DNA of 64,000 bases. Origin: a virus. The stretch spans positions 24,563 to 88,562 of IMG/VR virus record IMGVR_UViG_3300032770_000015; one strand, 5' to 3'. The notes beneath the pieces are model-generated. The model made no database searches, had not been told where the DNA came from, and worked only from the letters and a program-made list of their open reading frames with translations. This document shows positions 25,294 to 51,071 of the stretch, piece by piece. Position 1 is the stretch's first letter, and every line of letters begins with the position of its first letter. The position numbers and the translations under genes are program-made.

Positions 25294-25308
25294 GGTCGTG
25301 CCTCCGCG

Positions 25309-25548
25309 TTACTCGGCGTCGCCGCCGGTCGTCGGGGTGCCCCCGAGGTAATCGCCGCAGGGGTCGTTCGTGTTCGGGTCCGACGCGTGCGACGTGCCCT
25401 GCGCCAGCGTCAGGTGCTTCGCCGCCGAGGCGAACGCCGCGCCCGGAACGCCGTGCTTCTTCGGGTCGGTCGCGTCGCCCCGCGGGCGGGGCTGCAGGCG
25501 GTGCGCTACGCCCGCGTCGGCCGCCGGGGTCCGGTTGCCAAACGCCAT
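25309..25548 (-). CDS. Small protein of MAFGNHPDP family (divergent); first gene of the late operon
   Basis: MAFGNRTPAADAGVAHRLQ..., with GAGG RBS. Confidence 0.65.
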   Translation of the reverse strand: MAFGNRTPAADAGVAHRLQPRPRGDATDPKKHGVPGAAFASAAKHLTLAQGTSHASDPNTNDPCGDYLGGTPTTGGDAE

Positions 25549-26023
25549 GGGGATACGCCTCAGATCGTTGCAGTAGGATTTTGCTACCGGGTTCAATCTA
25601 CGCTGGCCGCGCGGCCGCAGCGGTCTTCCGGGCCGGGTCGGACGCCCCAGCGCCGCAGGCGCCCACTTCGGTATCACGATACCGGGTCGGGGAACGGCGG
25701 GGGCGGGACCAGGGACCACGGGTCTACATGGTGTCGGCAAACCGGATTCCCGACCGGGGCGGTACCCTACGGGGTACCCCCGGCGGAAACGGTTGCCGCG
25801 GGATGCGTCTACGCGTGGAATCGAGACGTTTTCGTCACGTTAAGCACGTCTACCTGCATGGAGTTCTTGCCGTAGCCGCCGCCGGGCCGGAGCCGCCGGG
25901 GGGCGACGGCGTGCGGTCACTACGACGTGCGTAGACGCGCGGGGGCCACGCCTGGCGGCCGATCCGGGGCGCGGGCAGGCCGGGGCGTAGGTCCGTGGTC
26001 GTTCGCCCCGCGTACGTGAACCT

Positions 26024-28675
26024 CGTAACCCGTTCGGGCGCCGAGCGTTACATCGACTTAACGGTTCGGGAACCGTTCGGTCCGGGCGCCGGATGATTCC
26101 CGGTCGCACCTGATACCGGGTTGACGTAACGCGCGAACGTACGCCCGTAAAGCGTTACGGCGTAACGGGTTACAGAAACGACTGCATATAATATACGTTA
26201 CGTTAAGTAAGCCCGAATAGGCCGCAAGTGGCGTCGCGGCGCGGGTTTACGGCGTCGGCGCCCGGTCGCGGCGTGTTACGGGTTCGGCGCCCGATGACCT
26301 AGGACCACGCGGCGGCGCCGAAACCGGCCGACCCCGGCGCGGCGCGGTTCGCGCGCGGATCGTGACCAGGCGGCCTAGCGGCGGCGTCGTACCGTGACGC
26401 GTGCGACGTTCACGCAGACGACCCGATCCGGCGCTCTTCCGGGCGACCGGGCGGGCGCGCGGCGTCTCACACGTCTACGGGGGCGTCGTGTTTCAAGACG
26501 CAAGGCTGGGCAGAGTGGGCCAAAGCATCTTCCCGACCGCGAACCGGTCGAAGGGGCCTATAAGTGAAAGTCCTTCGTAGGGTCTTCGGCGTTATTGGGG
26601 CGATTCGCCCCACAACGTCGGCATTCCGCGGCACTGCGGCGATTCGCGACAGATGGCTATCGCATAATGCGTCACTGCGGCATTCTGCGACACGACTGTA
26701 AAGATTCACGACAGTGGGGCATTTCGCCCATGCAGCAATCGCATTTTGCGGCACTGTCGCCATAGCGCTCCGCTGCCGATCCGGCCGACCCGACCCGGGG
26801 CGTCGCCGACCGGGCGGCGCGGCCGCAAGCCTCTCCCATGTCCACGGGCGCGTCGAACCCGCCGGGCGGGGCGTACCCCGTAGGGGTACGACCCCTGGCC
26901 CGTACGGGTACGACCGACGCGCGCCCGAACCGTTAACCTATTCCCGATCCTATTCCCGTGGCGCGTCGCCGACCGCGTAACCCCGTGGTCCCTGGAGCTT
27001 TGCGCCGCGTCCCGCGTCCCGCCGCGACCGTCGCCGATCCGGCGCGGCTGCAACCTATTCCCGGCGGTCGCGGGCGCCGTTAACGGTAGCGCGGCCGACG
27101 GCGCCCCGGCGCCGTTTCCGGGCAGGCGCAACCGTTCCGTGGCGCGGCGGCGCCGTTTCCGGCCGTCGTCGCCCCGGAACCCTCGGCGCCCGGCCGACTC
27201 CCGCGCTGCTCCGGCCTGCCGCCCGAACCCCGTCCCGTCGGCCCGCGTCGCGTGGCCCCGGAACTGGTCGCCGCCCCCGTCCGCGTAGACGTGCGGAGAA
27301 GCGTGATCCCGCCGCGCCCGGCCCGAACGTAAAGTGGTCCGTCGTCGTCGGTTACTCCGCCCCGGACCGGTCGCCCGACCGAACGCCCGGGCGTCGGGGT
27401 CGGCGCGCCGCTCGCGTGAACCTCGCACGTGACCCTGTCGTTACAGTATCGTTACACGTTCGTTACATCGGGTCGGCCGGTCGCGGCACGGTTTTCGCGC
27501 GCCGCCAGAAGTGTAATCGTTTTGTAACGGAGAAATTTCCGTGCCAGGCCCGGGATTCGCACGCCGCCGCGGAATGCGGCGATGTAACGATCCGATTACA
27601 AGGCGACGAACGGGCCGCCGTGGCACGGTTTTTTACGACCCTTGCCGGTGACCCGGAGAAGCGTGCCCCGCGCGCTGCGTGAAACCGGCGGAAAGCCAGG
27701 CGCGGCGCGGGTTTCCGCGATTCACGCCGGGTCGGTCGGGCGGACGGCCGCGCGGTCTTCCGTTCGCACGTCTACGCGGAACGTCGCACGAACGCCCCCG
27801 GAAGTGGCGTCGCGGCGCCGTTTCCGGCACCCGGGCTCGTCGGTTTCGACCCCCGGCACGTCGCGGGGCCGGACCGGGCGTCGCGCCGGGGCGGAATGTA
27901 ACGATCCGGTTACATTCGGCCGGTCGGCGCCGCGTTGGCACGATTTTTCAAACGTGCTACGATGACCCGTACGCCCCGACCCGTCGCGGAACCGGTTTGT
28001 CGGTAAACCCGCGCCGCGTAACGGGTTACGCTACGTCGCCGGGGCGCGGCCGTATCCCGATAACCCCCACCCCCCGGCAAACGGGTCGTAACCCCGTACG
28101 CCGTAACGGTTTACGACCGGTCGCGAAGACGGCCCCCGTTTCCACGTCTACGGTCATCCTCGCACGCCGCATTTCGCCGGGGATCGGACCCGTCGGGTAT
28201 GGCCCGCCGCCCGATTCCCGACCTCGGCGCCCGGCGTTCGCCCGACCGGACCGGGCGCACGACCCCGGCCGACGCCCGCCCGGCGTCGCCGCCGCCCCGG
28301 GGCGGCCCGATCCGGCGGGGGCGCGGGTCCCGGGCAGCCCAGGTCGGAATTCGCGCGTTTATAGGAGAGGTCGTAACCGCGTACGCCGTAACGGTTTACG
28401 GGTGTGATCTCAAGGCCCCCGCCGCCGCGCCCCCGGGCGCCGAACGGCGCAAAACGGTCCCAAACGGCCGATCCGGAGGTGACACGTTTGCACGCGCGCG
28501 GAAGCGTCGTAACCCCGTGGGAATACGGAAGTTACGGCGTTTTCGTCGTGCGCCCATTTTTCCGGTCGCGCCGGACCGTCCAAAATGCCCCGGTTTCGGG
28601 ACCGCCCCCGCCGACCCGGTAGAATCGCGCGTATACTAGCACGACCCGTAACCCGTTACGCCGTCGCGCTTTACG
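26024..28675. repeat. Dispersed 29-bp imperfect palindromes CGTAA-N19-TTACG (about 9 copies)
   Basis: Copies at 26024-26052, 26146-26174, 26223-26251, 26976-27004, 28002-28030, 28087-28115, 28372-28400, 28508-28536, 28647-28675. Confidence 0.8.
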
Positions 28676-28695
28676 GATGTAATCGGATCGTTACA
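27583..28695. promoter_or_regulatory. Three 18-bp operator-like palindromes TGTAA-N8-TTACA
   Basis: 27583-27600 TGTAACGATCCGATTACA, 27897-27914 TGTAACGATCCGGTTACA, and 28678-28695, which is the exact reverse complement of the first. Confidence 0.65.
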
Positions 28696-29213
28696 CATCT
28701 ACGGCGACGGCGGCCCGGGATTCGCTACGTTTTCGGGTCGCGGACCCCGGAACGCGGCGCGACGCCGTACCGACCGGGAAAACCGCCGGGGGAACCGCCG
28801 GGCCCAGCGCGCCGCGACGATACCGGGAAGGCGAAGCCGGAACCCCCGAACGAACGAACCCGCGCGACGGACGACGGCGCGGGTCGGGTGAACGAAGCAC
28901 CGACGGGGATGGTCGGATTAACCGGAACCCCCGCCGCCGGACCCCCGACCCGTACTGGGGCGACACCGCCCCCATCGTCCGACTGGTCGTCGCGGGCCGC
29001 CCGCCCGGCGCGCCGGAACATCGGCCGCGAACCCGGGGCGAACGGGCGGGGGTTTTCCGCCGGGGGCCGTTCCCCGAACGCGGACGCGACCCGCCACCGT
29101 TCCAGCGCACGTCGTCCCGCCGGGGCGTCGAATCCCCGGCAGGACATTCGCAGAAACCCCGCCGACCGGTCCGGCCGCGCGGGGCGTATCCCCGAACCGA
29201 AAGGAACCGACCC

Positions 29214-29429
29214 GTGGTCCCGATCCGCCTCACGCTCGACCCGCTGGGCGCCGGGTACGTCGAACTCGTCGCCGTCGTGCATGACGCGACGTACGACGCC
29301 GACGTGCGCCGGACGATCCGCGTCTCGCTCGAATCCTTCGGCCCGTCGGCGACCGTCGTTGCCCTGCGGGACGCGAAAGGGAACCTGGTCACGGCCGCCG
29401 ACTGGGCGCTCTTCCCGTCGGTCGCATAA
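29214..29429 (+). CDS. Early hypothetical protein
   Basis: 71 aa with AAAGGA RBS, bounded by family A motifs. Confidence 0.7.
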   Translation: MVPIRLTLDPLGAGYVELVAVVHDATYDADVRRTIRVSLESFGPSATVVALRDAKGNLVTAADWALFPSVA

Positions 29430-29534
29430 CCCGTCGCCGCCCGGCGTCGAATCCGGGCGGCGTCATACGAACCGAACGCCCGCGCCGGACCGGCGCTGGG
29501 CGAGCCGAAACCCGAACCGAAAGGGACCGTCCGA

Positions 29535-29849
29535 ATGAAGCCCGTGAATCCCGCCTGCGCCGACGATACGTCGCTGGCCGGGTACGTCGACACGACGTAC
29601 GCCGCGCTCGTCGCTGCCTTCGGTCCGCCGAACGGCCGGAGCGACGGATACAAGGTGGACGCCTGCTGGGTCCTGGCCGCCGGTGGGCGGATCGTAACCG
29701 TGTACAACTGGAAGGACGGCCCCGCGTACCGGGGCGCGGCCGGTACGCCGGTCGAGGCGATAACGACGTGGCACATCGGGGCGCACTTCGCCCCGGCGGC
29801 GCTCGCCGCGATGCGGCGCGCGTTCCCCGGCCGCGTTTCGGCCGCGTGA
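29535..29849 (+). CDS. Early hypothetical protein
   Basis: 104 aa. TSLAGYV.TTYA.LV.AFG.P..DG.KVD..W...TVYNWK...WHIG pattern seen in small phage proteins. Confidence 0.75.
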   Translation: MKPVNPACADDTSLAGYVDTTYAALVAAFGPPNGRSDGYKVDACWVLAAGGRIVTVYNWKDGPAYRGAAGTPVEAITTWHIGAHFAPAALAAMRRAFPGRVSAA

Positions 29850-30112
29850 CGAACCCGACGGCCCCGGGCTTCGAAACTCGGGGCCGCCTTACGATCCGAA
29901 CCGCCCGCGCCGGACCGGCGCCGGGCGGCGCTGCGTTGGGCACCGGGCCACCGGCCCGGCACGCGACCAGATGCCCCGGGGGTTGGATTCGCCCGGCGGT
30001 CGCCGCCCGCCCGACGCCCGGGGGCTTCGAAACCCCCGCGCGTCATCGCTGAACGTCGCCGGGCCGGACGGCCGGGCGACCCCGTACCCGCCGGACGAAA
30101 GGAACCGTACCC

Positions 30113-30271
30113 GTGGCCCCGCACGCGAACGAAGACCGGATCATCGCACAGCTCGACCGGGACGCCGTCTACCACGTCGCCGACCGCCTCGCGTTCCGCG
30201 TCGCCGACGACGCCGCGATGGCCCGCGCCCTGCGGCCGTACGTCGCCCGCTGCACCGCCGTTACGTTCTGA
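30113..30271 (+). CDS. Early hypothetical protein (52 aa)
   Basis: Own translation MAPHANEDRIIAQLDRD..., with AAAGGA RBS. Confidence 0.6.
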   Translation: MAPHANEDRIIAQLDRDAVYHVADRLAFRVADDAAMARALRPYVARCTAVTF

Positions 30272-30466
30272 ACCCGTCGCCGCCCGGCGTCGAACCCGGG
30301 CGGCGCCTTACGATCCGAACGCCCGCGCCGGACCGGCGCTGGGCGAATTCTTCCCCGATCCGAACCCGCACGACCAGAAAGGGACCGACCCGATGACCTC
30401 GACCCCGATGGACGAGCTGGCCGCCCTGCTCGTTCGCATCCAGCGCCGTCGTCCGGCGCCCGCCCG

Positions 30467-30757
30467 ATGAACCCCGCCGTCGTCGCCATCGTCGTCGCGG
30501 CCGTCCAGGACGCGCCGACCCCGTACCGCCTGGCCGACCGCATGGCCGCCCAGCGCGCCATCGTCGCCGCCGTCGCGCCGTACTTCGGCGGCGACCAGCT
30601 CGCCGCGTCGCTCGCGGTCGCCCCGGCGTACGCCGCCGCCGTCGAGCGCATTGCGGCGGTCCGGCGGAACCGGATCACCGGCCTGTCGTCGTCGCTCCCG
30701 GCCGGGGTCGTCATCGGCGACCGCGCCGTGCCGATCTCCGCCGTCGCGGGTGACTGA
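30467..30757 (+). CDS. Early hypothetical protein (preceded by 25-aa ORF 30393-30470)
   Basis: 96 aa, ATGA coupling. Confidence 0.6.
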   Translation: MNPAVVAIVVAAVQDAPTPYRLADRMAAQRAIVAAVAPYFGGDQLAASLAVAPAYAAAVERIAAVRRNRITGLSSSLPAGVVIGDRAVPISAVAGD

Positions 30758-30883
30758 ACCTACCGACGAGGCGTGACCCGCCCCGCGTCGCCCGGGGGCT
30801 TCGAAACCCCCGGGCGTCGTTCGCTCCGAACGTCCGCGCCGGACCGGCGCTGGGCGAGTTCTTCCCCGAACCGAAAGGGACGT

Positions 30884-31261
30884 ATGGAACACGACGCGCG
30901 GCACCTCTTCGAAGACCGGTACGGCGACGGTCACCCCTCGACGCGCTACCACGCGCGGCTGATCATCGCCGGGGCCGAGAACGGCCTCGCCGGATACGGC
31001 GTCGTCGTCATCCCGGCCGGATCGTCGGCCCGGCAGGTCCAGGGCGGGCCGCTCGTCCCTGGCCCGTGGGCCGCGACCTTCGGGCTCTGCACCGTCATCG
31101 ACAACGCGGGCGGAACCGGCGCCGAGGTCGCGCGCGAAACCGCCCGGGGCGACGCCATCCGCGTCGCGGCGGGCGATACCGTCCGCCTGACCGACGCCGT
31201 GACGGTCCGCGTTACCATCGGGCGGCGCGAGTACCCGGACCTGACCGTGGTGGACCGGTAG
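30884..31261 (+). CDS. Early hypothetical protein
   Basis: ATG at 30884 after AAAGGGA. Confidence 0.7.
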   Translation: MEHDARHLFEDRYGDGHPSTRYHARLIIAGAENGLAGYGVVVIPAGSSARQVQGGPLVPGPWAATFGLCTVIDNAGGTGAEVARETARGDAIRVAAGDTVRLTDAVTVRVTIGRREYPDLTVVDR

Positions 31262-31362
31262 GGCCGCCGGGCGGGGGCTTCGAAACCCCCGCCCGTCATC
31301 GCTGACCGACGGACGCCGGACCGGCGGGCCGTCCCTATTCCCCGATCCGAAAGGACGAGCTG

Positions 31363-32034
31363 ATGAAGCGCTACCAGATCATCACGGCGAACCGCGCCAC
31401 GAGGTCGCAGGCGGGGTACGCGCAGACGGAATCGTCAACCCTGGAGCTGGGCGAGTCCCTGTTCGTCACCGCCGAGAAGGCCGTCCCGCGCGGCGCCGGG
31501 GTCGAGGTCGAGCTGTTCGACACGGTCAAGAACAAGGTCCTGCGGTCCCGGTACTTCCCGACGCTCGACGAGGCGCGGGCGTCCGTCGCCCGGCGGCTCG
31601 CGAAGCACGTCGAGAGCGAGGTCGAGGCGGCCGAGGCGTCGCTGGCGAAGTTCACCGCCGAGATCAACCGTAACGTGGCGTCGCTCCGCGCCTGGGCCGT
31701 GGCCCGTGCGAACGGCGCCGACCTGACCGACTGGCGGGGCGGGAACACCGACGTGGAGTCGCCGTTCCGCTGGGCCGACGACTCGGTGGCCGCCGCCGCC
31801 CGCCTGATGGTCGCCCGCGAGGTCGAGGAATATCTGGCGACCGACCGCGCGCCGTCGGCCATCGTCGCCGCGCTGCGGACCCAGGTGCTGCGGTCGGCCC
31901 GGAACGGGCTGTCGCGGTCCACGTCGTCGTCGGCGAACCTGACCGAGGAGGCCCGCCTCGCCGCGCGGGCCGCGATGGTCGAGAAGCTCGAAACCATCGT
32001 CGCGTGGGCGACCGACATGGGCGTCGAGGTCTGA
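31363..32034 (+). CDS. Early hypothetical protein
   Basis: 223 aa with AAAGGA RBS. Confidence 0.75.
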   Translation: MKRYQIITANRATRSQAGYAQTESSTLELGESLFVTAEKAVPRGAGVEVELFDTVKNKVLRSRYFPTLDEARASVARRLAKHVESEVEAAEASLAKFTAEINRNVASLRAWAVARANGADLTDWRGGNTDVESPFRWADDSVAAAARLMVAREVEEYLATDRAPSAIVAALRTQVLRSARNGLSRSTSSSANLTEEARLAARAAMVEKLETIVAWATDMGVEV

Positions 32035-32037
32035 ACC

Positions 32038-32100
32038 GCCGAGGGGCGGGCGCCGACGAACCGGCGCCCGTTAAGGCACGGCCCGGTCCCAAGTCCGGGC
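32038..32100 (+). ncRNA. Twister ribozyme 1 (P5-like permutation); predicted cleavage U32072/A32073
   Basis: GCC-GAGGG-[P1 hairpin]-UAA-GGC-AC-..-GCCCGG-UCCCAAGU-CCGGGC. Confidence 0.88.
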
Positions 32101-32195
32101 GGAACGCAGGACGCCGCGCCAGGTATGGTGCCGGGTAAGCGTCCGTGCCGAACCCCATCACTTGAGGTGACATATGCGGTAGACCCCCGGGTAAC

Positions 32196-32272
32196 GCCGA
32201 GGGCGACGATCCGCCGGGCCGTACGCGCGCCCCGGGTCGTCGTAAGGCGCATGGCCGGTCCCAAGCCCGGCC
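32196..32272 (+). ncRNA. Twister ribozyme 2; predicted cleavage U32243/A32244
   Basis: GCC-GAGGG-CGACGAUCCG...CGGGUCGUCG-UAA-GGC-GC-..-GGCCGG-UCCCAAGC-CCGGCC. Confidence 0.88.
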
Positions 32273-32297
32273 GAACCCGAACGAAAGGAACGACCCG

Positions 32298-32672
32298 ATG
32301 TCGCTTCGCTGGCAGATGTCGAACGAGCAGAGCCCCGCGTGGGTGAACCTGTCGCCCGTGATGCGGGAGACCATGATCTTCGGCCTGGTCATCGCCGATA
32401 TGGGCGAGATCAAGGACGAGGCCGCCGCCGAGAAGTTCTGGACCCGGCTCCGGATGGCCGAGCTGGCGCAGGGCGACTCGTTCGTCCACCAGACCCCGGC
32501 GGGCGACGGCCCGATGATCCAGCGTTGGATCACCCTGGCCGACTGCCGGGCGGCCATCGGGCTCGGCGCGAACGTGCGGACGACGACGGACGCGCAGTAC
32601 AATCGGAAGGTCGCCGGTATCCTGCGCGACACGGCCGTCGCCGAGCTGCGGCGGGCGAAGGACGCAAAGTAG
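32298..32672 (+). CDS. Early hypothetical protein
   Basis: 124 aa with AAAGGA RBS, flanked by twisters 2 and 3. Confidence 0.75.
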   Translation: MSLRWQMSNEQSPAWVNLSPVMRETMIFGLVIADMGEIKDEAAAEKFWTRLRMAELAQGDSFVHQTPAGDGPMIQRWITLADCRAAIGLGANVRTTTDAQYNRKVAGILRDTAVAELRRAKDAK

Positions 32673-32735
32673 CCGAGGGGCGGGCGCCGATCCGTCGGCG
32701 CCCGTTAAGGCGCACGGCCGGTCCCAAGCCCGGCC
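32672..32735 (+). ncRNA. Twister ribozyme 3; predicted cleavage U32706/A32707
   Basis: Full core. First G is the last base of the TAG stop codon. Confidence 0.88.
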
Positions 32736-32760
32736 GAACCCCAAATGGAAAGGATGCCGG

Positions 32761-33249
32761 ATGAACTACGCGAACGTGCTAGGCGAGGCGAAGGGCAAGT
32801 TTGGCGCGTGGACCGCCTGGTATGTGCTGGGCGAGGCCGCCACCGGGTACGCGGTCCGCGCGCAGTTGGCGCCCGACCTGACGGTGAACCCGTTCACGGA
32901 CACGGACATCTACGGCGCGGTCAAGGAGATGAACAGCACGCAGCGCCCGGCCGGGTTCGACGGCGCAGCGCGGAAGATCCACACGCCCCGGTCGGTGTAC
33001 TGGTGGCAGCCGCCGTCGGATACGCGCGACGCGGCGGTCATCGCGTCCATCGCCGAGCGCGTGCGGCGGTTCCTGAACGACGACTGGTCGTATGTCGGCC
33101 TGCTCGTCGAGGTCCGGCACCCGCCCTGCACGCTGTGCGGCGAATCGCGGGTCACGTCGGCCGGGCTCTGGGGCATCGAGTCGGACAGCGACGACGGGTA
33201 CGTGATCGAGACGCTAGGCGACCTCGTGAACGAGGCGAAGGACGAGTAA
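32761..33249 (+). CDS. Early hypothetical protein
   Basis: 162 aa. DWSYVGL.V...AGLWGIESD motif. Flanked by twisters 3 and 4. Confidence 0.75.
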   Translation: MNYANVLGEAKGKFGAWTAWYVLGEAATGYAVRAQLAPDLTVNPFTDTDIYGAVKEMNSTQRPAGFDGAARKIHTPRSVYWWQPPSDTRDAAVIASIAERVRRFLNDDWSYVGLLVEVRHPPCTLCGESRVTSAGLWGIESDSDDGYVIETLGDLVNEAKDE

Positions 33250-33250
33250 C

Positions 33251-33313
33251 GCCGAGGGCGACCGCCGCGCGGTTCCGGCGGTCGTAAGGCACGGCCCGGT
33301 CCCAAGTCCGGGC
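33251..33313 (+). ncRNA. Twister ribozyme 4; predicted cleavage U33285/A33286
   Basis: Full core with P1 CGACCGCCG/CGGCGGUCG and T2 AC:GU. Confidence 0.88.
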
Positions 33314-33337
33314 GACCCCATCAACGAAAGGACGTGT

Positions 33338-33538
33338 ATGGCGCTCGTGATGCTGCCCCGTACCGACGACCTGCCGCCGGTGTACGTGAACCCGGCGCAC
33401 GTCGTCGGCGTCGAACCGTCGGTGACCGACCCCGGCGCGCCGGTCTGCACCGTGTACGTGCTCCCCGGGAACCGGGGCCACTTCGTCGCCCTGTCGGCGC
33501 TCGAGGCCGCCCGCCGCCTGAACGGGGGTGCCGCGTGA
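33338..33538 (+). CDS. Early hypothetical protein
   Basis: 66 aa with AAAGGA RBS. Confidence 0.65.
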   Translation: MALVMLPRTDDLPPVYVNPAHVVGVEPSVTDPGAPVCTVYVLPGNRGHFVALSALEAARRLNGGAA

Positions 33539-33915
33539 GGACGAAGCTGAACGCCCTGTTCAAGGCGCTGCGCCAGGCGGGCGTCGCGGCGCACCAGAAC
33601 TACGAGTGCTGCCAGGGGTGCGGCTGCGCCCGCGTCGCGTCCGAGATCGGCGTCGTCGGCGCGTACGTCTTCTATCACCACCAGGACGCCGAAGACCTCG
33701 AGCCCCCGCGCCATCACCGTGCGGGCGACGGCTGGCGGCCCGGCGTCTACCTGGCGTACGGGATCGTGTCGGCCGTGGAGCTGCCGGACGCGGTGGAAGA
33801 GGCCCTGCGGCTGAAGGTGGGCGAGCTGATCCGGAGGCTCGCCACCGTGGTCGGGCTCGCCGTCGAGTGGGACGGGACGACCGCGCAGCGCATCTGGGTC
33901 ACGGAGGCCGCGTGA
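33535..33915 (+). CDS. Hypothetical protein (DUF6891-like)
   Basis: LNALFKALRQAGV.A.QNYECCQGCG...YVFYHHQD...GL.VEWDG....RI pattern. Confidence 0.6.
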   Translation: MRTKLNALFKALRQAGVAAHQNYECCQGCGCARVASEIGVVGAYVFYHHQDAEDLEPPRHHRAGDGWRPGVYLAYGIVSAVELPDAVEEALRLKVGELIRRLATVVGLAVEWDGTTAQRIWVTEAA

Positions 33916-34238
33916 TCGACACCCTCGAGCCGTCGCCGCGCCGCGAGCCCACGCGGCAGATGTTCATCGTTCCGAACGACCCCGCCGGGCGGGCGGTCAT
34001 CGCCACTCTGCGCGCATACCTGAACCGGGCGACCTACCGCCTGCGGGTCGTCGGCCGGGGCGTCCGCGCCGACCGCGCCCGCGAGTTCCGCCGCACGCAC
34101 CGGGCCTGGGCGACCCGGCGCCCCGACTACGCCTGGATTCCGCGCCGGTACGCGACCCGCCTGGCCGTGTACATCGAGCGCAAGGACGGGATCGGGATCA
34201 ACTGGCAGCAGCTCCGCACGCTGTACCCCGTCCGTTAG
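33912..34238 (+). CDS. Early hypothetical basic protein
   Basis: GTGA coupling. Ends at twister 5. Confidence 0.65.
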   Translation: MIDTLEPSPRREPTRQMFIVPNDPAGRAVIATLRAYLNRATYRLRVVGRGVRADRAREFRRTHRAWATRRPDYAWIPRRYATRLAVYIERKDGIGINWQQLRTLYPVR

Positions 34239-34302
34239 CCGAGGGGCGGGCGCCGATCCGTCGGCGCCCGTTAAGGCGCACCGCCGGTCCCAAGTCCGGC
34301 GG
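34238..34302 (+). ncRNA. Twister ribozyme 5; predicted cleavage U34272/A34273
   Basis: Full core, T2 GC:GU. Confidence 0.88.
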
Positions 34303-34328
34303 AACCCACTGGAGAAAGGCTGGGCGAG

Positions 34329-34670
34329 ATGTCCGACGTGCAGATCACGAAGGTTCACGCCGTCGAGTGGCACCGCAACGGCGTCGGCGGGCTCGGGTTC
34401 CACGTCGTCCTGTTTGACGAGGCTACGGAGGGGCGGATGATGGCCGTGGACTTCGGCCCCGAGGCCGACGCGGCGACGGATTCCTTCGGGGTCATCGCGG
34501 TCTTCCAGCTCGACAAGCTAGCGGCCGGTGACGTGGCCTTCGGGTCGAACTCGTGGCGCGGCGACCACTACACCGGGCCAGTCCGGGCGGTCATCACGGC
34601 GGCCGAGGCGCGGGGCGAGACCGGGAAGCTCGGGCCGTTCTCGCTGCCGCCGCAGCTTCGCCGGAAGTAG
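34329..34670 (+). CDS. Early hypothetical protein
   Basis: 113 aa. WHRNGVGG..FHVV.F and NSWRGDHY motifs. Flanked by twisters 5 and 6. Confidence 0.75.
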   Translation: MSDVQITKVHAVEWHRNGVGGLGFHVVLFDEATEGRMMAVDFGPEADAATDSFGVIAVFQLDKLAAGDVAFGSNSWRGDHYTGPVRAVITAAEARGETGKLGPFSLPPQLRRK

Positions 34671-34730
34671 CCGAGGGGCGGGCGCCGATGGATCGGCGCC
34701 CGTTAAGGCACGGCCCGGTCCCAAGTCCGG
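34670..34730 (+). ncRNA. Twister ribozyme 6; predicted cleavage U34704/A34705
   Basis: Full core, T2 AC:GU. Confidence 0.87.
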
Positions 34731-34757
34731 CGACCCATCTCAAAGGAGGCAGCCGGT

Positions 34758-35072
34758 ATGAGCGCACGCGTCTTCGTCTGGCCCGAGCGGACCTACGAGG
34801 AGCTGGGCGCCGAACGCTGGGCCGTGTCCTGGAAGACCGTGCGGCCCGGCGCCAACGTAAATGAGGAGATCGACTTCGACGTCGACCTCGTGGACCGCGC
34901 CGTCGCCTGCCGGACCCACGCGGCGGCGGTTGCCCGCGCGCGGCGCGCCGCCGCCGAGGACTACTTCGGCGGGGCGGTCGTTCAGCGCCAGGTCGTCGCG
35001 TGGGACGTCGAGGAGGACCGCATCGCCGAGTGGGCCCCCGCTGGTGAACCCGAATATGTGGAGGACCGATGA
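34758..35072 (+). CDS. Early hypothetical protein
   Basis: 104 aa with AAAGGAGG RBS. Confidence 0.7.
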   Translation: MSARVFVWPERTYEELGAERWAVSWKTVRPGANVNEEIDFDVDLVDRAVACRTHAAAVARARRAAAEDYFGGAVVQRQVVAWDVEEDRIAEWAPAGEPEYVEDR

Positions 35073-35428
35073 GACCGCGCACGTCGATCATCGTCGCCCT
35101 TCGGCCCGGCCGAACCCAGGCCGCGGCCGACCGCCGCGAGCGGATGGAGACCATCATCCTGGCCGAGGCCCGCGCCCGGGGCGTCCGGTATGACGGGTCG
35201 GGGAACTACGTCACGGGGCCGCGGCGCGGGACGCGCGAGCTTTTCTTCGTGACGCGCCGGCGCGACCTGACCGTCGCCGCCGTCCGCGACCTGAAGGCCG
35301 ACGTCCGCGAGGCGGAGCACTTCGCCTACCGGACGTACTTCATCACCCGGGACTATGGGACCGGCGCCTGGCTCGTGAACCGCGGCGGCCGGACCGTCGC
35401 CGCCGCCGCCCGGGCGCTGGTCCGTTAG
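35069..35428 (+). CDS. Early hypothetical basic protein
   Basis: 119 aa, ATGA coupling. Confidence 0.65.
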   Translation: MRPRTSIIVALRPGRTQAAADRRERMETIILAEARARGVRYDGSGNYVTGPRRGTRELFFVTRRRDLTVAAVRDLKADVREAEHFAYRTYFITRDYGTGAWLVNRGGRTVAAAARALVR

Positions 35429-35551
35429 CCGAGGGGCGGGTGCCCGTCCGCGATGCGCCGCTGGGTCGAGCCGGGTTCCGACCGGCGCCAGCACGCGGTC
35501 TCGCACGACGTGGTACCCGTTAAGGCGCACCGCCGGTCCCAAGCCCGGCGG
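35428..35551 (+). ncRNA. Twister ribozyme 7 with extended P1; predicted cleavage U35521/A35522
   Basis: P1 base GCGGGUGCC/GGUACCCGU encloses an insert of about 65 nt. Core intact. Confidence 0.83.
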
Positions 35552-35578
35552 AACCCCACTAGAGAAAGGCTGGGCGAG

Positions 35579-35938
35579 ATGGATGAGCGGCAGGCATCGC
35601 GTGAGGCAGCCGAGGACGTGCGGTACGAGCGCTGGGAGGCGCTATTGTTCAAGCACGTGCCCGGCCTGACGCGCGGGAAGAATCCGGCGTGGCGGTCCGA
35701 CTTGATGATGGAGGCCGATGGCGGCCCGATCTTCATGAAGTTCATGTCGGACGGTGGCGTGGATGACACGCCGAACGGTCTGGCGCTGCGGGCCTGGCTC
35801 CGGGCGCGGAAGATTCCGTTCCGGCAGTATGGGCTGAAGGAGGACCCCGGCCAGGTGCGGGTCTTCACGCTGTCGCGGCGGGCGTTCGCCCGGGTCGAGG
35901 CCATTCTGCGCGGGCTCGAGCGCCGCGCGGCGCGGTAA
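35579..35938 (+). CDS. Early hypothetical protein
   Basis: ATG at 35579 after AGAAAGG. Confidence 0.7.
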   Translation: MDERQASREAAEDVRYERWEALLFKHVPGLTRGKNPAWRSDLMMEADGGPIFMKFMSDGGVDDTPNGLALRAWLRARKIPFRQYGLKEDPGQVRVFTLSRRAFARVEAILRGLERRAAR

Positions 35939-35970
35939 GCCGAGGGCTGCTGGTGCTAAAGGTCGCAAGG

Positions 35971-36035
35971 GCCGAGGGACGGGCGCCCCGATCCGGGCGC
36001 CCGTTAAGGCGCGCCGCCGGTCCCAAGTCCGGCGG
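35971..36035 (+). ncRNA. Twister ribozyme 8; predicted cleavage U36005/A36006
   Basis: P1 ACGGGCGCCC/GGGCGCCCGU. Full core. Confidence 0.88.
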
Positions 36036-36056
36036 AACCCCGAACGAAAGGACCGT

Positions 36057-36389
36057 ATGATCACGACGAAGCGGCTGATCTTCCACCTCGACGCGGCCAT
36101 CGCGCGGCACGTCCGCGACTGGCAGCGCCTGACCGAGCACGGCACGATTGCCGTCGACTCGGACGTGATAGCGCTGTACGCGCAGGACATGGCCGCGCTA
36201 ATGCGGGCGCGGTCGGCGTTCTGCCACGCCAGGTTGGTCGAGGAGCACAGCACGTGGGACACGGCGACCGTCGCCCGGCTGCTGCGCCGGGGCGCGCGCA
36301 TCTTGCGCGACCGCGACACGGCGGTCACCGACCACTTTCCCCGCCCGCTCGTCCTGGCGGTCGGGTCGCTGGTCGGCGACGGCGCGTGA
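36057..36389 (+). CDS. Early hypothetical protein
   Basis: 110 aa with AAAGGA RBS. Confidence 0.65.
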   Translation: MITTKRLIFHLDAAIARHVRDWQRLTEHGTIAVDSDVIALYAQDMAALMRARSAFCHARLVEEHSTWDTATVARLLRRGARILRDRDTAVTDHFPRPLVLAVGSLVGDGA

Positions 36390-36634
36390 TCAACACGCAG
36401 CGCGCCCGCGCCGCGCTTAACCGGCTCATCGCGGCGGCCGACGACACGGCCGTTGACCAGGCGTTCCTCGACCGCTTCCTGCGCCGTGCACCGACGTATG
36501 CGAATGCGTGCGAGGCCTGCGGGAAGCAGGTCGCCACCACCACCATCCTGGGCCACGGGTACTGCGCCCACTGCGGGAACGTCGCGCTCGAGGTCATCGA
36601 GGCCCGGCGCGCCCGCCGAAAGGAGACCGCGTGA
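36386..36634 (+). CDS. Small zinc-finger protein
   Basis: CEAC...CAHC. GTGA coupling. Confidence 0.6.
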   Translation: MINTQRARAALNRLIAAADDTAVDQAFLDRFLRRAPTYANACEACGKQVATTTILGHGYCAHCGNVALEVIEARRARRKETA

Positions 36635-37056
36635 AGAAGGTCCGCCACCGGACGACCCGCGCCACGCTGCTGGTCGTTGACCGCCTGAACCTGACCGACC
36701 TGCCCGGAAAGGATCTCGCCGGGGCCGACCTCGCCGAGGAGGACCTGGGCGCGACGAACCTGCGCGCCGCCAGCCTGCGCGGCGCCGACCTCCACGGGGC
36801 GTGGCTGCGCCGGACGAACCTGAACGACGCCGACCTCCACGCGGCCGACCTGCGCGGCGTGGACGCGCAGGGCGCGGACCTGCAGCGCGCGAACCTCTCG
36901 AACGCCGACCTCACCGGGGCTGACCTGCAGGGCGCCGACCTGCGCGGGGCAAACTTCGCCGGGGCGTGCTTGACCGACGCCGACCTGCGCGGCGCGAACC
37001 TGCGCGGCGTCGCCGTGACGGTCGGCAACCGCACCATCCTGACGTCCAACGCCTAA
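36631..37056 (+). CDS. Pentapeptide repeat protein
   Basis: About 20 A(D/N)Lxx repeats. AAAGGAG RBS. Confidence 0.9.
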   Translation: MKKVRHRTTRATLLVVDRLNLTDLPGKDLAGADLAEEDLGATNLRAASLRGADLHGAWLRRTNLNDADLHAADLRGVDAQGADLQRANLSNADLTGADLQGADLRGANFAGACLTDADLRGANLRGVAVTVGNRTILTSNA

Positions 37057-37118
37057 CGCAGAGGAGGGCCGGGACCGATCCCCGGCCCTAATGCGGCGGC
37101 CCGGTTCCAAGCCCGGGC
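37057..37118 (+). ncRNA. Twister ribozyme 9 (divergent, covarying); predicted cleavage U37089/A37090
   Basis: CGCA-GAGGA-[P1]-UAA-UGCG-GC-.-GCCCGG-UUCCAAGC-CCGGGC. Compensatory changes in P2 and T1. Confidence 0.9.
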
Positions 37119-37148
37119 GACGTTCACCCCCGAAACGAGGGAGCGCTG

Positions 37149-40100
37149 ATGAAGCAGACCCACGTGATGAACCGCGCGACGGCGGCCGAGCTGGGCGATG
37201 CCCTGCTCGCGGCGGCGGGCGACATCGCGACCCGGTACGGCCTCGAGGTCGAGGCGGCGGCCGGGTCGTTCAGCACGACGGAGTTCAAGGGCTCCGTCCG
37301 GTTCAAGCTGCCCGCGACGAACCCCCGCGTGGCCGAGAAGCTCGCGGCGGACTTCGCCGACCTGCACCTCAACCCGGCCATCGTCGGCTGCCAGATGACG
37401 GTGCGCCGCCACACGTACACCGTCACCGGCGTGAAGCCCTACGCCAAGTACTGCATCGTGACCCGCCGCGATGACGGGAAGACGTTCATGTTCCCGTACG
37501 CGACGGCCGAAAAGCACTTCCCGACGATGGTCACCCGGCCGTGACCGACCACACCGGGGAAGTCTACGGCCCGGCGGTCCTGCTCGGGACGCTGCCGGTC
37601 GGCGCGCGGTTCCGGTCGGTGATCGTGGACGTGCCGCCGCGCGGGTTCCGCCCGCTGCCCGACCGGATCAAGTACGGCACGCTCGAGGATCTGTCGTCCG
37701 CCTGCGCCACGGTCACCGTCGAACGGGTCGTGTCGCGGACGTTCACGACCGAGGAAGGGAAGGACGTGACCCTGGCCACGGCGTCCGAGCGGACGACGTG
37801 GAGCCTCGGCACCGTGGTCGAACCCCTGCTCACGCCGGAGGTGCTCGTGTGAAGACGCTCCTCGCCGTCCTGGCGGCGCTCGCCGCCCTGAAGTACCTGA
37901 CCGACCCGTCGCGCGACCCGCTGGGCGAGCTGCGCCGCCGGGGCGCCCTGTGAACTACCGCGCGTACTTTCGCGGGCGGTCCGTCGTCGGGACCGCGCCG
38001 AACGTAGAGACCGCGCAGCGCGAGGCCGCCAAGCTGCTGGGCGCCCGGAAGTACTGGGAGGTCCAGATCGAGCAGGTGGCCGCCAACGTCAACCCGCCGG
38101 AACCGAAGGAACCTGCACCGTGACCCCGACCAGTCGCATACGGAAGATGCGCCCCCTCGAGGGCGACCCCAGCCGGACGGACCGCGCCCGGCGCAACGAC
38201 CTGACGCGCGCGGCGATCCGCGACCTGAAGGTGGACCTGCGGGTGCCGACGCACTTCTCGTACCGCGGATTCTACGTCACGCGGTCGTTCTCGACCGCGA
38301 CCTGGTACATCAGCCGCGACGGGACGCCGATCACCACGGCGCCGTCGGCCGCCGAGGCGCGCCGGGTCATCGACACGCTGGCGCGGGAGGCCTGATGGCC
38401 TTCACCCGGCGCAGCTTCGAATCGGCCCGGGCGTCCGGGCTCGGAAAGGCGCAGACGCTCGCCCGCGCCGAGGCCGCGACCCGGACGGTCGCCGCCCTGG
38501 AGGGCTGGCCCGTCGCCCGGCTGGCGCTGAAGTTGGCCGCGTACCGGCAGATGGCAGACCTCGCCTGGGCCGACTGTCCCGTCTGCGGGCAGCCCTGGAC
38601 CCAGGGTCACGATCCCGAAACCTGTTGAAGAAAGGATGACCTGTGAAGCGTTTCTTTGATGATCACCCTGTGGGCACGTTGCTGAACGCCGTCGAGGCCG
38701 AAGACGGTGAGCCGCAGGAATTCAGCCAGCCCGCGATCCTCAACCCGAACGGCGCCCCGGCGACGTTCGTGAACGTCTACCGCGTCGAGCGGTGCTATGG
38801 CGGCCCCGAGGAGGGCGGCTGGTGGTACGACACCGGGGAACCGGTCGGCTCGGTCGTCGTCCAGGGCAGCGTCGAGACGCACGTCGTCCGCACCCGGCTC
38901 GAGCGCGAGTATCCGTTCACCCGCGCCCGGTACTCCGTCCTGGGCGGCGAGGACTACAGCGTCCGGGTCGAGGATCACCCGGCCGTCGCGTGGCCCGCGC
39001 AGCGCCCCCACTACTGCTGAGGAGGCCGCGTGAAGCCGTCGCAGATCGAACAGCAGATGACCGGGCAGTGGGACACCTGGGTCACGACGACCATCGAGGT
39101 CTCGACCGCGACCCTGGAACGGTTCGCCGCCGCGATCCACACGGTCATCGGCCGTAACGTGGACGTGCGGTACGCGCTTCGCAACGTGGACGCGATGCTA
39201 ACCGCCGCCGCCGAGCTCGCCGTCGCCCGGTCGCTCGAGACCGACCGGCGGAACGGCCAGACGTACCGCGAGCTGCACGCGACCGCCCTGCGCCACGCGC
39301 TCCATGGGGCGGCGTTTCCCCGGCAGACGGGGCGGGCGGCCGACGCCATCAACGAGGGCGCCGAGACGGCCGCCTGGGCGCACGTCGAAGAGGTTCTCCG
39401 CAGCATCCTCGCCATCGAAAGGACCACACCGTGAGGTACCGCGTCACCGCCACCACGCTCGACCTGACCTGCGCCTCGCTGCACGTCGGCGCGGTCGTCA
39501 CGTCGGCGCCGATCCGGCACGAGGTCATCGACACCGAGGCGAACGAGCTGTTCGCCGACTGCGCCACCGCGTGGCAGGTCGAGGACCGGTACACCGATTT
39601 CTGGAACCGGATTGACCCCACGCTCGACATCCACCAGCCCTTTCACACGCACCGGGCGACGGAGAAGGTCGTCGTCCTGAACGTCGAGGTGATCCCGTGA
39701 ACCCGCACAACCTGAACCTGGTCCCCACGGCCGTCGCGGCGGCCATCGACACCGGGCGCCCGGAGCTGCTGGTCGCGCTCCGCGACGCCGCCCTGCGCGG
39801 CACGTTCGCCCCGGACCGCACGACGGTCGCGGGGCTCGTTGGGGTCATCGCCGATCAGGTCGAGGCCATCGGGCGCCTCCAGCGTCAGCTGGCCGAGGCC
39901 CGCACCCTGGCGACCGAGCTCACGAAGATCGGGAAGGGGCTGCTGCTCGCGGCCGATGCGCTCGGGAACCTGCGGTGAACGTCGCCACGAAGGCCCTGCA
40001 CCTGACGCCCGAGTGCGACCGCCTGGTGGCCGTGTCGGGTGAGTCGCAGCGGATCGGCGCGTTTTTTGCCTGGCTCACGCACGACCGTGACCCCCAGATC

Positions 40101-48903: not shown

Positions 48904-49083
48904 ATGCGCCTTGTGGCACGGTTGACGGCCTCGTACCTGCTGAAGTTTGCCCCGCGTGACAAGGCGGACATCCGCCGCCTGGCGGCCCACGATGGGCAGC
49001 CCGCCGCGGCCCTGATCCGATCCATCCTGCTTCCGGCGGTCCGCCGTCGGCTGGCGAAGATCGACAGCAAGACGCGCACGTGA
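48904..49083 (+). CDS. Ribbon-helix-helix-like regulator
   Basis: YLLKF strand followed by IRRLAA.DG...AALIRSIL. Confidence 0.5.
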   Translation: MRLVARLTASYLLKFAPRDKADIRRLAAHDGQPAAALIRSILLPAVRRRLAKIDSKTRT

Positions 49084-51071
49084 GTTCTGCCGTCGCCTGC
49101 CAGCCGGACCGCCTGCCCGCGGCCCTGCGCCGGTACCCGCACTGGGTCGTCTGGCGCGAGGAACCCCGGGCCGCCGACGATCCGCGCCCGGCCAAGATCC
49201 CATATGGGAAGGACGGCGCCAAGGCCAGGGCGAACGCGCCCGGGTCATGGCTCGCCTATGAGGATGCCCTCGCCCTTTACCAAGCGGGCGGCTGGAACGG
49301 CCTCGGGTTCTTTTTCTGGCGGGCGCTGCCGTACATCGGCATTGACCTTGACCACTGCCGCGACGCCGCCGACGGGACGCTTGACCTCTGGGCGCGGCAG
49401 TTTCTCGAGCACTTCCCCGGGGCGTACGTCGAGGCGTCGCAGTCCGGCACGGGGCTGCACATCATCGTGCAGGGGAAGCTCGACTTTCCGGCCGGGCGCG
49501 AGGGCGGGAAGAAGGGGCCGGTCGAGATATATGCCGGGCAGCACTACCTCGCCCTGACCGGCGTGCTGGTCGCGGGCGCCGGGACCGACGTGACGGCGGC
49601 GCCGCCCGGCGCGCTCGAGGAGGTCGCGCGGGCGTACGGGTTCCTCGACCGCGGGACGGCCCCGCTCCCAGGTGCTCCGGACGCGGCAACGCCGGACCGA
49701 TCCGGGCAACCGGACGTTCCGGCGGCCCCGCCCTCGGGCGAGGCGGCACCTGCGGCGGCCGTCCTGACCGACGACGACCTCGTGACGGCGATCATGCGGT
49801 CGCCGGACGCGAAGCGCTGGCACAAGCTGTTCGGTGGTGGCGAGCTGCCCGGCGGGTCGGCGTCCGAGGCCGACTTCGAGATGGCCTCGATCCTCTGCCG
49901 CCACTCGACCGACGACGACCAGGTGGCGCGGCTGATGGAGCTATCGCCCCTGAAGCGCGAGAAGTGGCGGGCGAAGCGCGGGACCGAGTCGTGGCTGCAG
50001 TACACGATCCGGTCGGCGCGGCTCCGCCTATCGGGCGGGCACGCGGCGCGGGTCATCGGGTCAGCGACGGCGGTCTCGCTCGCCACGATCATGAAGGACC
50101 CGAACGCCCTGAACGCCCCGCCCGCCGTGATCCCGAACCTCGCCTGGGCGGGCCGCATGACCCTGGTCGCCGCCCGCGAGGGCATCGGGAAGTCCACGCT
50201 GTTCGCCGCCGCGGCGGCGGCAGTCACGACCGGTGGGCCGTGGCTCGGGGTCGCCGGGCAGGAGGCGCTGCGCTGTGCGCAGGGCGCGGTTCTCTGGTGC
50301 CTCGTCGAGGAGCACGTCGGCGACCTGGGGCGCCGCGCCATCGCGATGCGGACCGACCCCGACCGCCTCTACATCCTCGACCGGCCGGGCGACGCGCTCG
50401 CCGCCCTGCGGGCCGAGACGCTGCGGCTGAAGCCAGCGCTGATCATCATCGACACGCTGCACGCCTGGGCCGCCGAGGCCGTGACCGAAACGGCGTCGGC
50501 GGACGAGTGGCAACCGCTGATGACCGCGCTCGATAGCCTGGCGCGCTCCACGGGCGTTGCGATCCTGATGGCCGCGCAGGCGTCGAAACAGACGGGTGAC
50601 TACCGCGATTCGACCGCGATAGGGCACGCCGTGGACGTGGTGCTGACCCTGGCGCGCCCGTCCGATCTCCCCGAGGACGACCCGACCCGCGACCTGCTCG
50701 TCAGGAAGGCGCGCTGGTCCCTCGACCCGGTGCGGTATCGTTATACGGTGAAGGACGATCTCGTAACGCTCGAGGGCCTGACGAAGCTGCCGCCCGCCGT
50801 GCTCGACGCGGCACGGGCCACGGCCGCGTACGACTGGATCAAGGCGAACCCGGGGAAGGGACTCGCCCAGTTGGCCCGGGGCATTCGCTGCCGCCCGAAC
50901 GACGCGGAACGGGCGGCCAGCGACCTGGTGACCAGCGGGCGCGTCCGCGACGTCATCGAGGCGCACGGCGACCAGAAGTGGCACCGGTACTACGTGGCCG
51001 ACGCCGTTCCGGCCGACGCCGCGGTTCCGGCAACGACGGACAAGGGAGATCGCGATGACGCGGCGTTCTAG
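49080..51071 (+). CDS. Primase-polymerase (AEP, NrS-1-like) fused to AAA/RecA-type helicase
   Basis: GLGF, IGIDLDHC, E.SQSGTGLHII, VEIY, YLALTG, SEAD helical bundle. Walker A AREGIGKST, Walker B LIIIDT. Confidence 0.88.
   Translation: MSSAVACQPDRLPAALRRYPHWVVWREEPRAADDPRPAKIPYGKDGAKARANAPGSWLAYEDALALYQAGGWNGLGFFFWRALPYIGIDLDHCRDAADGTLDLWARQFLEHFPGAYVEASQSGTGLHIIVQGKLDFPAGREGGKKGPVEIYAGQHYLALTGVLVAGAGTDVTAAPPGALEEVARAYGFLDRGTAPLPGAPDAATPDRSGQPDVPAAPPSGEAAPAAAVLTDDDLVTAIMRSPDAKRWHKLFGGGELPGGSASEADFEMASILCRHSTDDDQVARLMELSPLKREKWRAKRGTESWLQYTIRSARLRLSGGHAARVIGSATAVSLATIMKDPNALNAPPAVIPNLAWAGRMTLVAAREGIGKSTLFAAAAAAVTTGGPWLGVAGQEALRCAQGAVLWCLVEEHVGDLGRRAIAMRTDPDRLYILDRPGDALAALRAETLRLKPALIIIDTLHAWAAEAVTETASADEWQPLMTALDSLARSTGVAILMAAQASKQTGDYRDSTAIGHAVDVVLTLARPSDLPEDDPTRDLLVRKARWSLDPVRYRYTVKDDLVTLEGLTKLPPAVLDAARATAAYDWIKANPGKGLAQLARGIRCRPNDAERAASDLVTSGRVRDVIEAHGDQKWHRYYVADAVPADAAVPATTDKGDRDDAAF

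Follow-up and report, generated by a model that had tools for sequence, protein, structure and literature searches.

Nine predicted type-P5 twister ribozymes at the gene junctions of a putative early operon in an uncultivated phage

Nine copies of a twister-type self-cleaving ribozyme motif lie within 5.1 kb of an uncultivated phage genome, IMG/VR record IMGVR_UViG_3300032770_000015. The stretch analysed here, referred to as the window, comprises 64,000 nucleotides (nt), bases 24563-88562 of the 88,562-base-pair (bp) record, and is numbered from its own first base. All nine copies, numbered 1 to 9 from left to right, are on the plus strand, which is the coding strand, and all are intergenic (Table 1). 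The elements are identified as type-P5 twisters by covariance-model scores, by pseudoknots that lie outside the models and by covariation. From their structure and their placement between stop codons and ribosome-binding sites (RBSs), we consider it likely that they are functional ribozymes that would constitutively cut a polycistronic early transcript into mRNAs of one to three genes.

Family identity and structure of the elements

An initial annotation of this DNA, made by reading the letters, had placed nine twisters on the plus strand and named a covariance-model search with the Rfam twister family as a check. This search was run, and Twister-P5 (RF02684; gathering score 37.6 bits, match spanning model positions 1-58) gave full-length matches above its cut-off at eight of the nine sites (47.2-56.5 bits). 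At copy 7 this model gave only a shifted partial match of 27.4 bits (35477-35548), because the loop of P1 carries an insert of about 60 nt. R2, a covariance model made from five of the window copies, matched copy 7 end to end (51.9 bits, E 5.7e-9), and copy 7 alone folds into P2, a long P1 and P4. All nine positions were thereby confirmed. No other Rfam family matched the window at E ≤ 1, and RF02684 found no further twister anywhere in the 88,562-bp genome.

The twister class was described by Roth et al. in 2014, as cited in passages of two reviews (PMC5408937, PMC6765202), the first of which gives about ten nucleotides of L1, L4 and the U/A scissile site at >97% conservation. All nine copies have the same order of elements: P2 5' strand, T1 strand, P1 hairpin, UAA, P2 3' strand, T2 strand and P4 hairpin. 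They are thus permuted as in type P5, with P1 closed by a loop and the ends lying between P4 and P2; a P5 stem is not evident. P1, P2 and P4 form in every copy, as do the pseudoknots T1 and T2, which are absent from both covariance models. The cleavage sites predicted from this parse (Table 1) are those given in the initial annotation, as is the distribution of T2 pairs, which are AC:GU in three copies, GC:GC in four and GC:GU in two. The annotation had also stated that P1 varies in sequence but always pairs; pairing holds in all nine copies, but the variation is only partial, P1 being identical in copies 1, 3, 5 and 6.

Compared with the RF02684 family, the window copies share the stems P1, P2 and P4, both pseudoknots, the UAA site, the GAGGG strand, the UCCCAAGY loop and the permutation. 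UAA, GAGGR and CCAAG are found in 9/9 copies; five have G in place of the A that the consensus shows after T2. The window copies differ from the family in the P1 insert of copy 7, in P4, which is lengthened in eight copies by 2-3 covarying pairs drawn from three different pair sets, and in P2, which has only 3 bp (GCC/GGC) in eight copies, one pair short of the consensus, with the closing A and U missing. The sole full form is the 4-bp P2 of copy 9 (CGCA/UGCG), where T1 also carries a compensatory G-C to A-U change (GGA/UCC), a joint change that the annotation had picked out and that was reproduced here. The 3-bp P2 recurs in independent contigs with 47-62% GC and unrelated P1 stems, one of them with a compensatory C-G to U-A change in P2, which argues for a functional variant without proving it. 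No homologs of the array genes were found at these other 3-bp-P2 loci.

Since the nine copies are paralogues, sequences from other contigs were added. A pattern scan of metagenome contigs yielded nine loci, all nine with Twister-P5 matches above cut-off, and an R2 alignment was assembled from 24 twisters: the window supplied nine, and 11 other contigs the remaining 15. In this alignment 96.8% of cells are in standard pairs and 16 of 22 pairs show double changes. None of 500 column shuffles reached any of five measures, and sliding the partners by 1-3 columns reduced pairing to 24-50%. By helix, P1 was paired in 98.4% of cells (double changes in 10 pairs), P2 in 94.2% (1 pair) and P4 in 100% (3 pairs); the T1 and T2 pseudoknots were paired in 97.1% and 86.7% of cells. 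MAFFT alignments misplaced copies 7 and 9, and no counts were taken from them. Judged by these comparisons, these are real twister folds.

Placement and proposed processing of the transcript

The copies are fitted tightly between genes. Eight have an upstream gene, and seven of these begin between -1 and +3 nt from its stop codon; the exception is copy 8, 32 nt after the stop. P2 opens with the G of a TAG stop in four copies, and three others start P2 0-3 nt beyond the stop. On the downstream side, where eight copies have a gene, 24-32 nt separate the ribozyme end from the start codon, and a Shine-Dalgarno sequence of GAAAGG or GGAGG type lies in this gap. The layout in the initial annotation, in which the ribozymes are on the coding strand, nearly all follow a stop and precede an RBS, and bound one to three genes, therefore stands, with the caveat that copy 1 is not followed and copy 2 not preceded by a gene. 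The array divides the genes into segments of 1, 1, 3, 1, 2, 1 and 3 genes, and genes that share a segment overlap by GTGA or ATGA. Between 25000 and 39000, neither promoter-like sites (2, against 0.7 expected from shuffles) nor terminator-like sites (5, against 7.2) are in excess; this lack of enrichment is compatible with one transcription unit and argues for it weakly.

In the proposed mechanism, a single long rightward transcript would start in the non-coding region of about 3.8-3.9 kb from which the gene blocks diverge, and would carry all nine ribozymes. Each would fold once its P4 hairpin had been made and would cut the nascent RNA between the U and A of UAA. With the type-P5 permutation, the cut would fall midway through the element and leave one hairpin on each product. 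The upstream mRNA would retain its stop codon and have the P1 hairpin and a 2',3'-cyclic phosphate at its 3' end, and the downstream mRNA would begin with a 5'-OH and about 7-9 free nt, followed by the P4 hairpin, the Shine-Dalgarno sequence and the start codon at the spacing given above. A likely benefit would be defined, hairpin-capped ends for each segment, with translation start and decay uncoupled from those of neighbouring genes. We infer that a protective hairpin on each product may be the rationale for using the type-P5 permutation in arrays.

Table 1. Coordinates of the twister copies and of other features of the operon
Feature	Position	Strand	Basis	Predicted cut	Flanking sequence and remarks
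Twister-P5 copy 1	32038-32098	+	RF02684 54.7 bits; R2 83.2 bits	U32072/A32073	Begins 3 nt past stop of gene 31363-32034; no gene directly downstream
Spacer between copies 1 and 2	32099-32195	+	97 nt; no open reading frame (ORF) of at least 30 amino acids (aa)		Fold of -34.0 kcal/mol, without shuffle control
Twister-P5 copy 2	32196-32270	+	RF02684 47.2 bits	U32243/A32244	Longer P1; 27 nt from end to start of gene 32298-32672; no gene directly upstream
Twister-P5 copy 3	32672-32733	+	RF02684 55.3 bits	U32706/A32707	First base is G of upstream TAG stop
Twister-P5 copy 4	33251-33311	+	RF02684 53.6 bits	U33285/A33286	Differing P1 sequence; three translationally coupled genes downstream (33338-33538, 33535-33915, 33912-34238)
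Twister-P5 copy 5	34238-34299	+	RF02684 54.9 bits	U34272/A34273	1-nt overlap with TAG stop; gene 34329-34670 downstream
Twister-P5 copy 6	34670-34730	+	RF02684 55.7 bits	U34704/A34705	P4 of only 4 bp, without extension; genes 34758-35072 and 35069-35428 downstream
Twister-P5 copy 7	35428-35548	+	R2 51.9 bits, full length	U35521/A35522	Branched insert of about 60 nt in P1 loop; gene 35579-35938 downstream
32-nt insert before copy 8	35939-35970	+	Read from sequence		Follows TAA stop 35936-35938; first 9 nt duplicate the ribozyme 5' strand (P2 and T1 strands), then 23 unrelated bases
Twister-P5 copy 8	35971-36032	+	RF02684 51.6 bits	U36005/A36006	Three coupled genes downstream (36057-36389, 36386-36634, 36631-37056)
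Twister-P5 copy 9	37057-37116	+	RF02684 56.5 bits, highest of the nine	U37089/A37090	Starts immediately past TAA stop; gene 37149-37544 downstream
14 co-directional small genes	31363-37544	+	Third-position-GC gene map, ORFs, Pfam, PHROGs
Second two-hairpin junction motif, seven copies	29111-31340	+	First seven junctions of the same operon		Copies start near 29111, 29430, 29854, 30010, 30273, 30784 and 31263

Several points weigh against constitutive cleavage by nine functional ribozymes. Motif, structure, strand and placement can be read directly from the DNA, and the single transcript, its cleavage and any effects on stability or translation are proposed on that basis. The eight copies with a shortened P2 lack the Rfam-consensus A-U pair next to the scissile site, and we know of no assay of a 3-bp-P2 variant. 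Independent covariation within the window is limited, since the four copies with identical P1 are in part recent duplicates, and the alignment of 24 twisters was fitted to the nested helices of the model, which favours P1, P2 and P4 and leaves T1 and T2 exempt. No relatives of the phage suited to a comparison of array synteny were found. Whether the products would be stabilised depends on the host; the glmS ribozyme reportedly yields a destabilised 5'-OH product in Bacillus subtilis. Cleavage might also be conditional, since a ribosome terminating at a stop codon in or next to P2 would unfold the ribozyme.

The last point leads to an unlikely alternative in which the ribozymes are active but their cleavage depends on whether the upstream gene is being translated, or on other conditions, so that the array sets the relative expression or timing of the segments. 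It draws on the sharing of the TAG G with the P2 5' strand in four copies and on the 0-3 nt between stop and P2 in three. In arrays of other phages described below, 18 of the 24 matches examined in records G012 and G008 have a stop-to-ribozyme distance of -2 or -1, and the pattern is mixed in G033 and G019. The large P1 insert of copy 7 and the decoy-like copy of the 5' strand ahead of copy 8 would also suit regulation, and regulated cleavage of phage hammerhead ribozymes is raised in part of the account by Perreault et al. (PMC3088659). Against this, the compact placement may merely reflect selection for short intergenic regions, and no alternative fold of a ligand-binding or switch-like kind was seen. 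Among small ribozymes, twisters rank with the fastest, and at such speed cleavage would probably run ahead of the ribosome.

It is decidedly unlikely that the elements do not cleave at all and are degenerate ribozymes, kept as stabilising or insulating pairs of hairpins or as DNA recombination joints that shuffle early gene cassettes. In its favour are the missing A-U pair of P2 in eight copies, the 89% identity of copies 3 and 5 over 87 nt, which reaches into the flanking coding ends and RBS spacers, the 9-nt partial duplicate ahead of copy 8, and the fact that the flanked genes are unrelated ORFans. However, conserved loop and junction nucleotides such as UAA, GAGGR and CCAAG, as well as both pseudoknots, persist throughout the nine copies, P2, T1, T2, P1 and the P4 extension show compensatory changes, and the 3-bp-P2 variant is retained in unrelated contigs. 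Mere hairpins or DNA repeats are disfavoured because such conserved nucleotides, pseudoknots and compensatory changes are not expected of them.

Highly improbable is the rejoining of doubly cut cassettes into circular or spliced mRNAs, either through an RtcB-type ligase of the host or through reversal of the twister reaction in a hybrid of neighbouring half-ribozymes: twister ends (5'-OH and 2',3'-cyclic phosphate) are those that RtcB joins, a property exploited in PMC4787814, the identical P2 and T1 of copies 1-8 would allow a 3' half to pair with the next copy's 5' half, and the possibility is raised for hammerhead arrays in a section of PMC3088659, but that same section states that spliced or circular products were sought and none found (data not shown there), no phage-encoded RtcB was matched in a search whose control was positive in 10/14 genomes, and the compensatory changes of copy 9 are internal to one ribozyme, not between neighbours.

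Constitutive cutting into mRNAs of one to three genes is thus the reading we prefer. With nine near-identical twisters in one operon, the phage offers a natural test bed for asking whether such arrays process phage mRNA and what effect the 5'-OH and hairpin, or hairpin and cyclic-phosphate, ends would have.

Twister arrays in other phages and known processing systems

To our pattern for the canonical type-P5 3' half, 44 IMG/VR loci responded, and RF02684 was then run over 39 of their records. At E ≤ 0.001, 35/39 were matched, with 23/39 above cut-off, and 11/39 contained at least five matches above cut-off (range 5-12); these fractions are not valid for phages at large, since the records had been preselected for at least one twister-like motif. 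The counts per record were 12 in G012, 9 in G008 and 8 in G019, 7 each in G033, G030 and G028, 6 each in G003, G010 and G022, and 5 each in G023 and G034. In G012, G008, G019 and G033, which are unrelated and range from 51 to 72% GC, the ribozymes are confined to a single strand; as a rule they share 1-2 nt with a TAG or TAA stop and have an RBS and start codon about 15-30 nt later. Flags that place high-GC loci of these four records inside an ORF stem from a crude ORF caller. These arrays, of 5-12 copies in 5-10 kb, therefore share with the window array the ribozyme family, the strand logic, the stop overlap and the RBS after P4. They differ from it in that most of their copies have the canonical 4-bp P2. 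Many unrelated phages, all of them uncultivated, carry the same module, which suggests that the strategy is widespread among phages.

Other pattern searches were less productive. A first IMG/VR pattern gave 16 loci, two with an Rfam twister and one of these also with a pistol ribozyme, and a 3'-half pattern of looser design also gave 16 loci, each with a single match. In a collection of genome contigs, the strict pattern found no loci, and none of the 26 loci found with the loose pattern matched R2, so that this collection gave no clue to the host. Three of the nine metagenome loci are short contigs with several ribozymes, two of which (L033 and L035) carry two twisters each. Mixed clusters were seen as well. 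In the third of these contigs, Ga0180007_10171310 (L028, 1396 bp), a Twister-P5 and a type-II hammerhead lie about 200 nt apart, together with two weaker twister matches, and in IMGVR_UViG_3300021399_000119 (L016) a pistol ribozyme lies about 650 nt upstream of a Twister-P5.

Arrays of ribozymes that flank phage genes have been described before. In the portion of Perreault et al. (2011) drawn on here, prophage hammerhead arrays are taken to imply that long phage transcripts are processed to mRNAs of operon length or of single genes, three tandem (triple) arrangements cleave native polycistronic transcripts of about 2 kb in vitro, and one arrangement, which flanks ardA, cleaves in vivo (PMC3088659). 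Passages of later papers restate the idea of polycistronic processing as one that needs more work (a 2019 review, PMC6765202), describe the reason for associations among ribozymes and between ribozymes and phage genes as still unknown (a 2023 paper, PMC10085705), and still call the role of bacterial and phage twisters unknown (PMC5408937, PMC6765202, PMC10085705). The literature searched, which left most subscription journals beyond its reach, contained no description of gene-by-gene twister arrays. The suggestion in the initial annotation that such an array was without characterised precedent was nevertheless overstated, since gene-flanking ribozyme arrays of prophages were tested in 2011 (PMC3088659) and Twister-P5 arrays of the same geometry occur in many IMG/VR phages. 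The window array is a clean and fairly large example of a design that recurs in phages, and its arrangement is not new in kind.

The likeness to those hammerhead arrays, as far as they are described in the same portion of PMC3088659, lies in ribozymes on one strand that flank single genes or short blocks, in the processing role proposed for them and in nearby small genes of anti-restriction type, ardA there and a pentapeptide-repeat protein here. In contrast, the window has twisters instead of hammerheads, nine copies against the triple arrangements (larger hammerhead arrays than those compared here may exist in that paper), a strictly regular spacing to stop and RBS, and cleavage that is predicted where theirs was demonstrated (PMC3088659).

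The initial annotation had likened the array to the processing of T7 transcripts. In phage T7, RNase III cuts the early mRNA at intergenic structured sites to give mRNAs with hairpin ends. Common to both systems would be a polycistronic early transcript that is cut at intergenic structured sites into hairpin-ended mRNAs. T7 relies on a host protein, long duplexes and products with 5'-phosphate and 3'-OH ends, whereas the RNA would here cut itself and leave predicted 5'-OH and 2',3'-cyclic phosphate ends.

Genome context, a second junction motif and neighbouring genes

The record has direct terminal repeats and is rated 100% complete by CheckV. Its GC content is about 70%, and no tRNA genes were found in it. 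The only sequencing run that contains the array region is of a wetland metagenome DNA sample, possibly the source of the record. Pfam analysis of the window indicated three phage hallmarks, a P22-type coat protein (11380-12531, minus strand), a family-A DNA polymerase (PolA; 54616-56514, minus strand) and a primase-helicase (49080-51071), as well as a DUF932 protein. The gene layout was read from a map of third-position GC content (GC3). Minus-strand genes extend to about 25.3 kb, and a long plus-strand block of mostly small genes occupies 29.2-54.6 kb, with the twister array 3-8 kb inside it. The region between the divergent blocks (25.3-29.1 kb) is gene-poor, with no gene called by the GC3 map. 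From this layout, the designation of the array genes as an early operon can reasonably be inferred. One better sigma-70-like site was seen on the plus strand within 25300-29100, at 27935-27963 (9/12 matches, with TG).

Relatives of the phage were sought at several levels. Among GenBank phages, only the pentapeptide-repeat gene was matched (51 records, each covering 4% of the query). In IMG/VR, no relative was found for the protein whose gene immediately precedes the array, the coat protein had only two short fragments as relatives (62% and 34% identity), and a 406-aa DUF7168 protein matched only itself among 5.8 billion proteins. A search for a T7-type RNA polymerase in the phage gave no match, but its control was equally silent, which makes this result uninformative.

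Upstream of the twisters, the first seven junctions of the operon carry a second two-hairpin motif (Table 1). Its first hairpin, of 10-12 bp, has a conserved loop of 8 nt; a conserved linker richer in A/U comes next, then a second hairpin and after that an RBS. RNAalifold analysis gave 22 pairs, 12 of them with compensatory changes. The motif is not a twister, and it had no match in Rfam even at E ≤ 10 on a short stretch. R1, a covariance model of this motif, matched one of 20 records, namely this genome, and none of the other 19 twister-bearing phage records. A reading of the first hairpin as a T-loop or RNase P minihelix was rejected, as the loop has 8 nt, not 7. Two of the copies form a doublet at 29854-30088 that resembles the doublet of twister copies 1 and 2.

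All seven of these elements share the position of the twisters between stop codon and RBS, and the motif may serve as a cleavage site for a host RNase, as a structural insulator or as a ribozyme of a new kind. The claim of the initial annotation that the early transcript is cut without host RNases may therefore not hold across the whole operon, whose first seven junctions carry this different, unclassified motif. A more far-reaching possibility, which we regard as rather doubtful, is that two interchangeable RNA modules would dice the early transcript at 16 junctions without protein, the second motif being an undescribed class of self-cleaving ribozyme. The pistol, hatchet and twister-sister classes were found by searching the same places as a twister, and the same positional logic would apply to the second motif if it is self-cleaving.

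Among the 14 genes of the array region, Pfam and PHROGs assigned a family to only two, and no paralogy was detected among the genes flanked by the array. Gene 33535-33915 encodes a DUF6891 protein (Pfam PF21831, 7e-19), and gene 36631-37056, the last before copy 9, encodes a 141-aa pentapeptide-repeat protein (Pfam PF00805, 2.2e-29) that may be a DNA mimic or an anti-restriction early protein. This gene provides the only DNA-level match of the region in GenBank phages, which are P22-like, Ralstonia and Caulobacter phages. The spacer that separates copies 1 and 2 may represent a small RNA or what remains of a gene since lost; double cleavage at these copies would free it within an RNA of about 170 nt that carries half a ribozyme at each end. 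The 9-nt duplicate ahead of copy 8 may be a scar left by recombination, or a decoy strand that competes. The start of gene 35579-35938 was taken as the RBS-preceded ATG at 35579. A further ATG lies within the P1 insert of copy 7; the frame that it opens (35453-35578) is in phase with this gene and would give a 161-aa alternative product read through the 3' half of the ribozyme.

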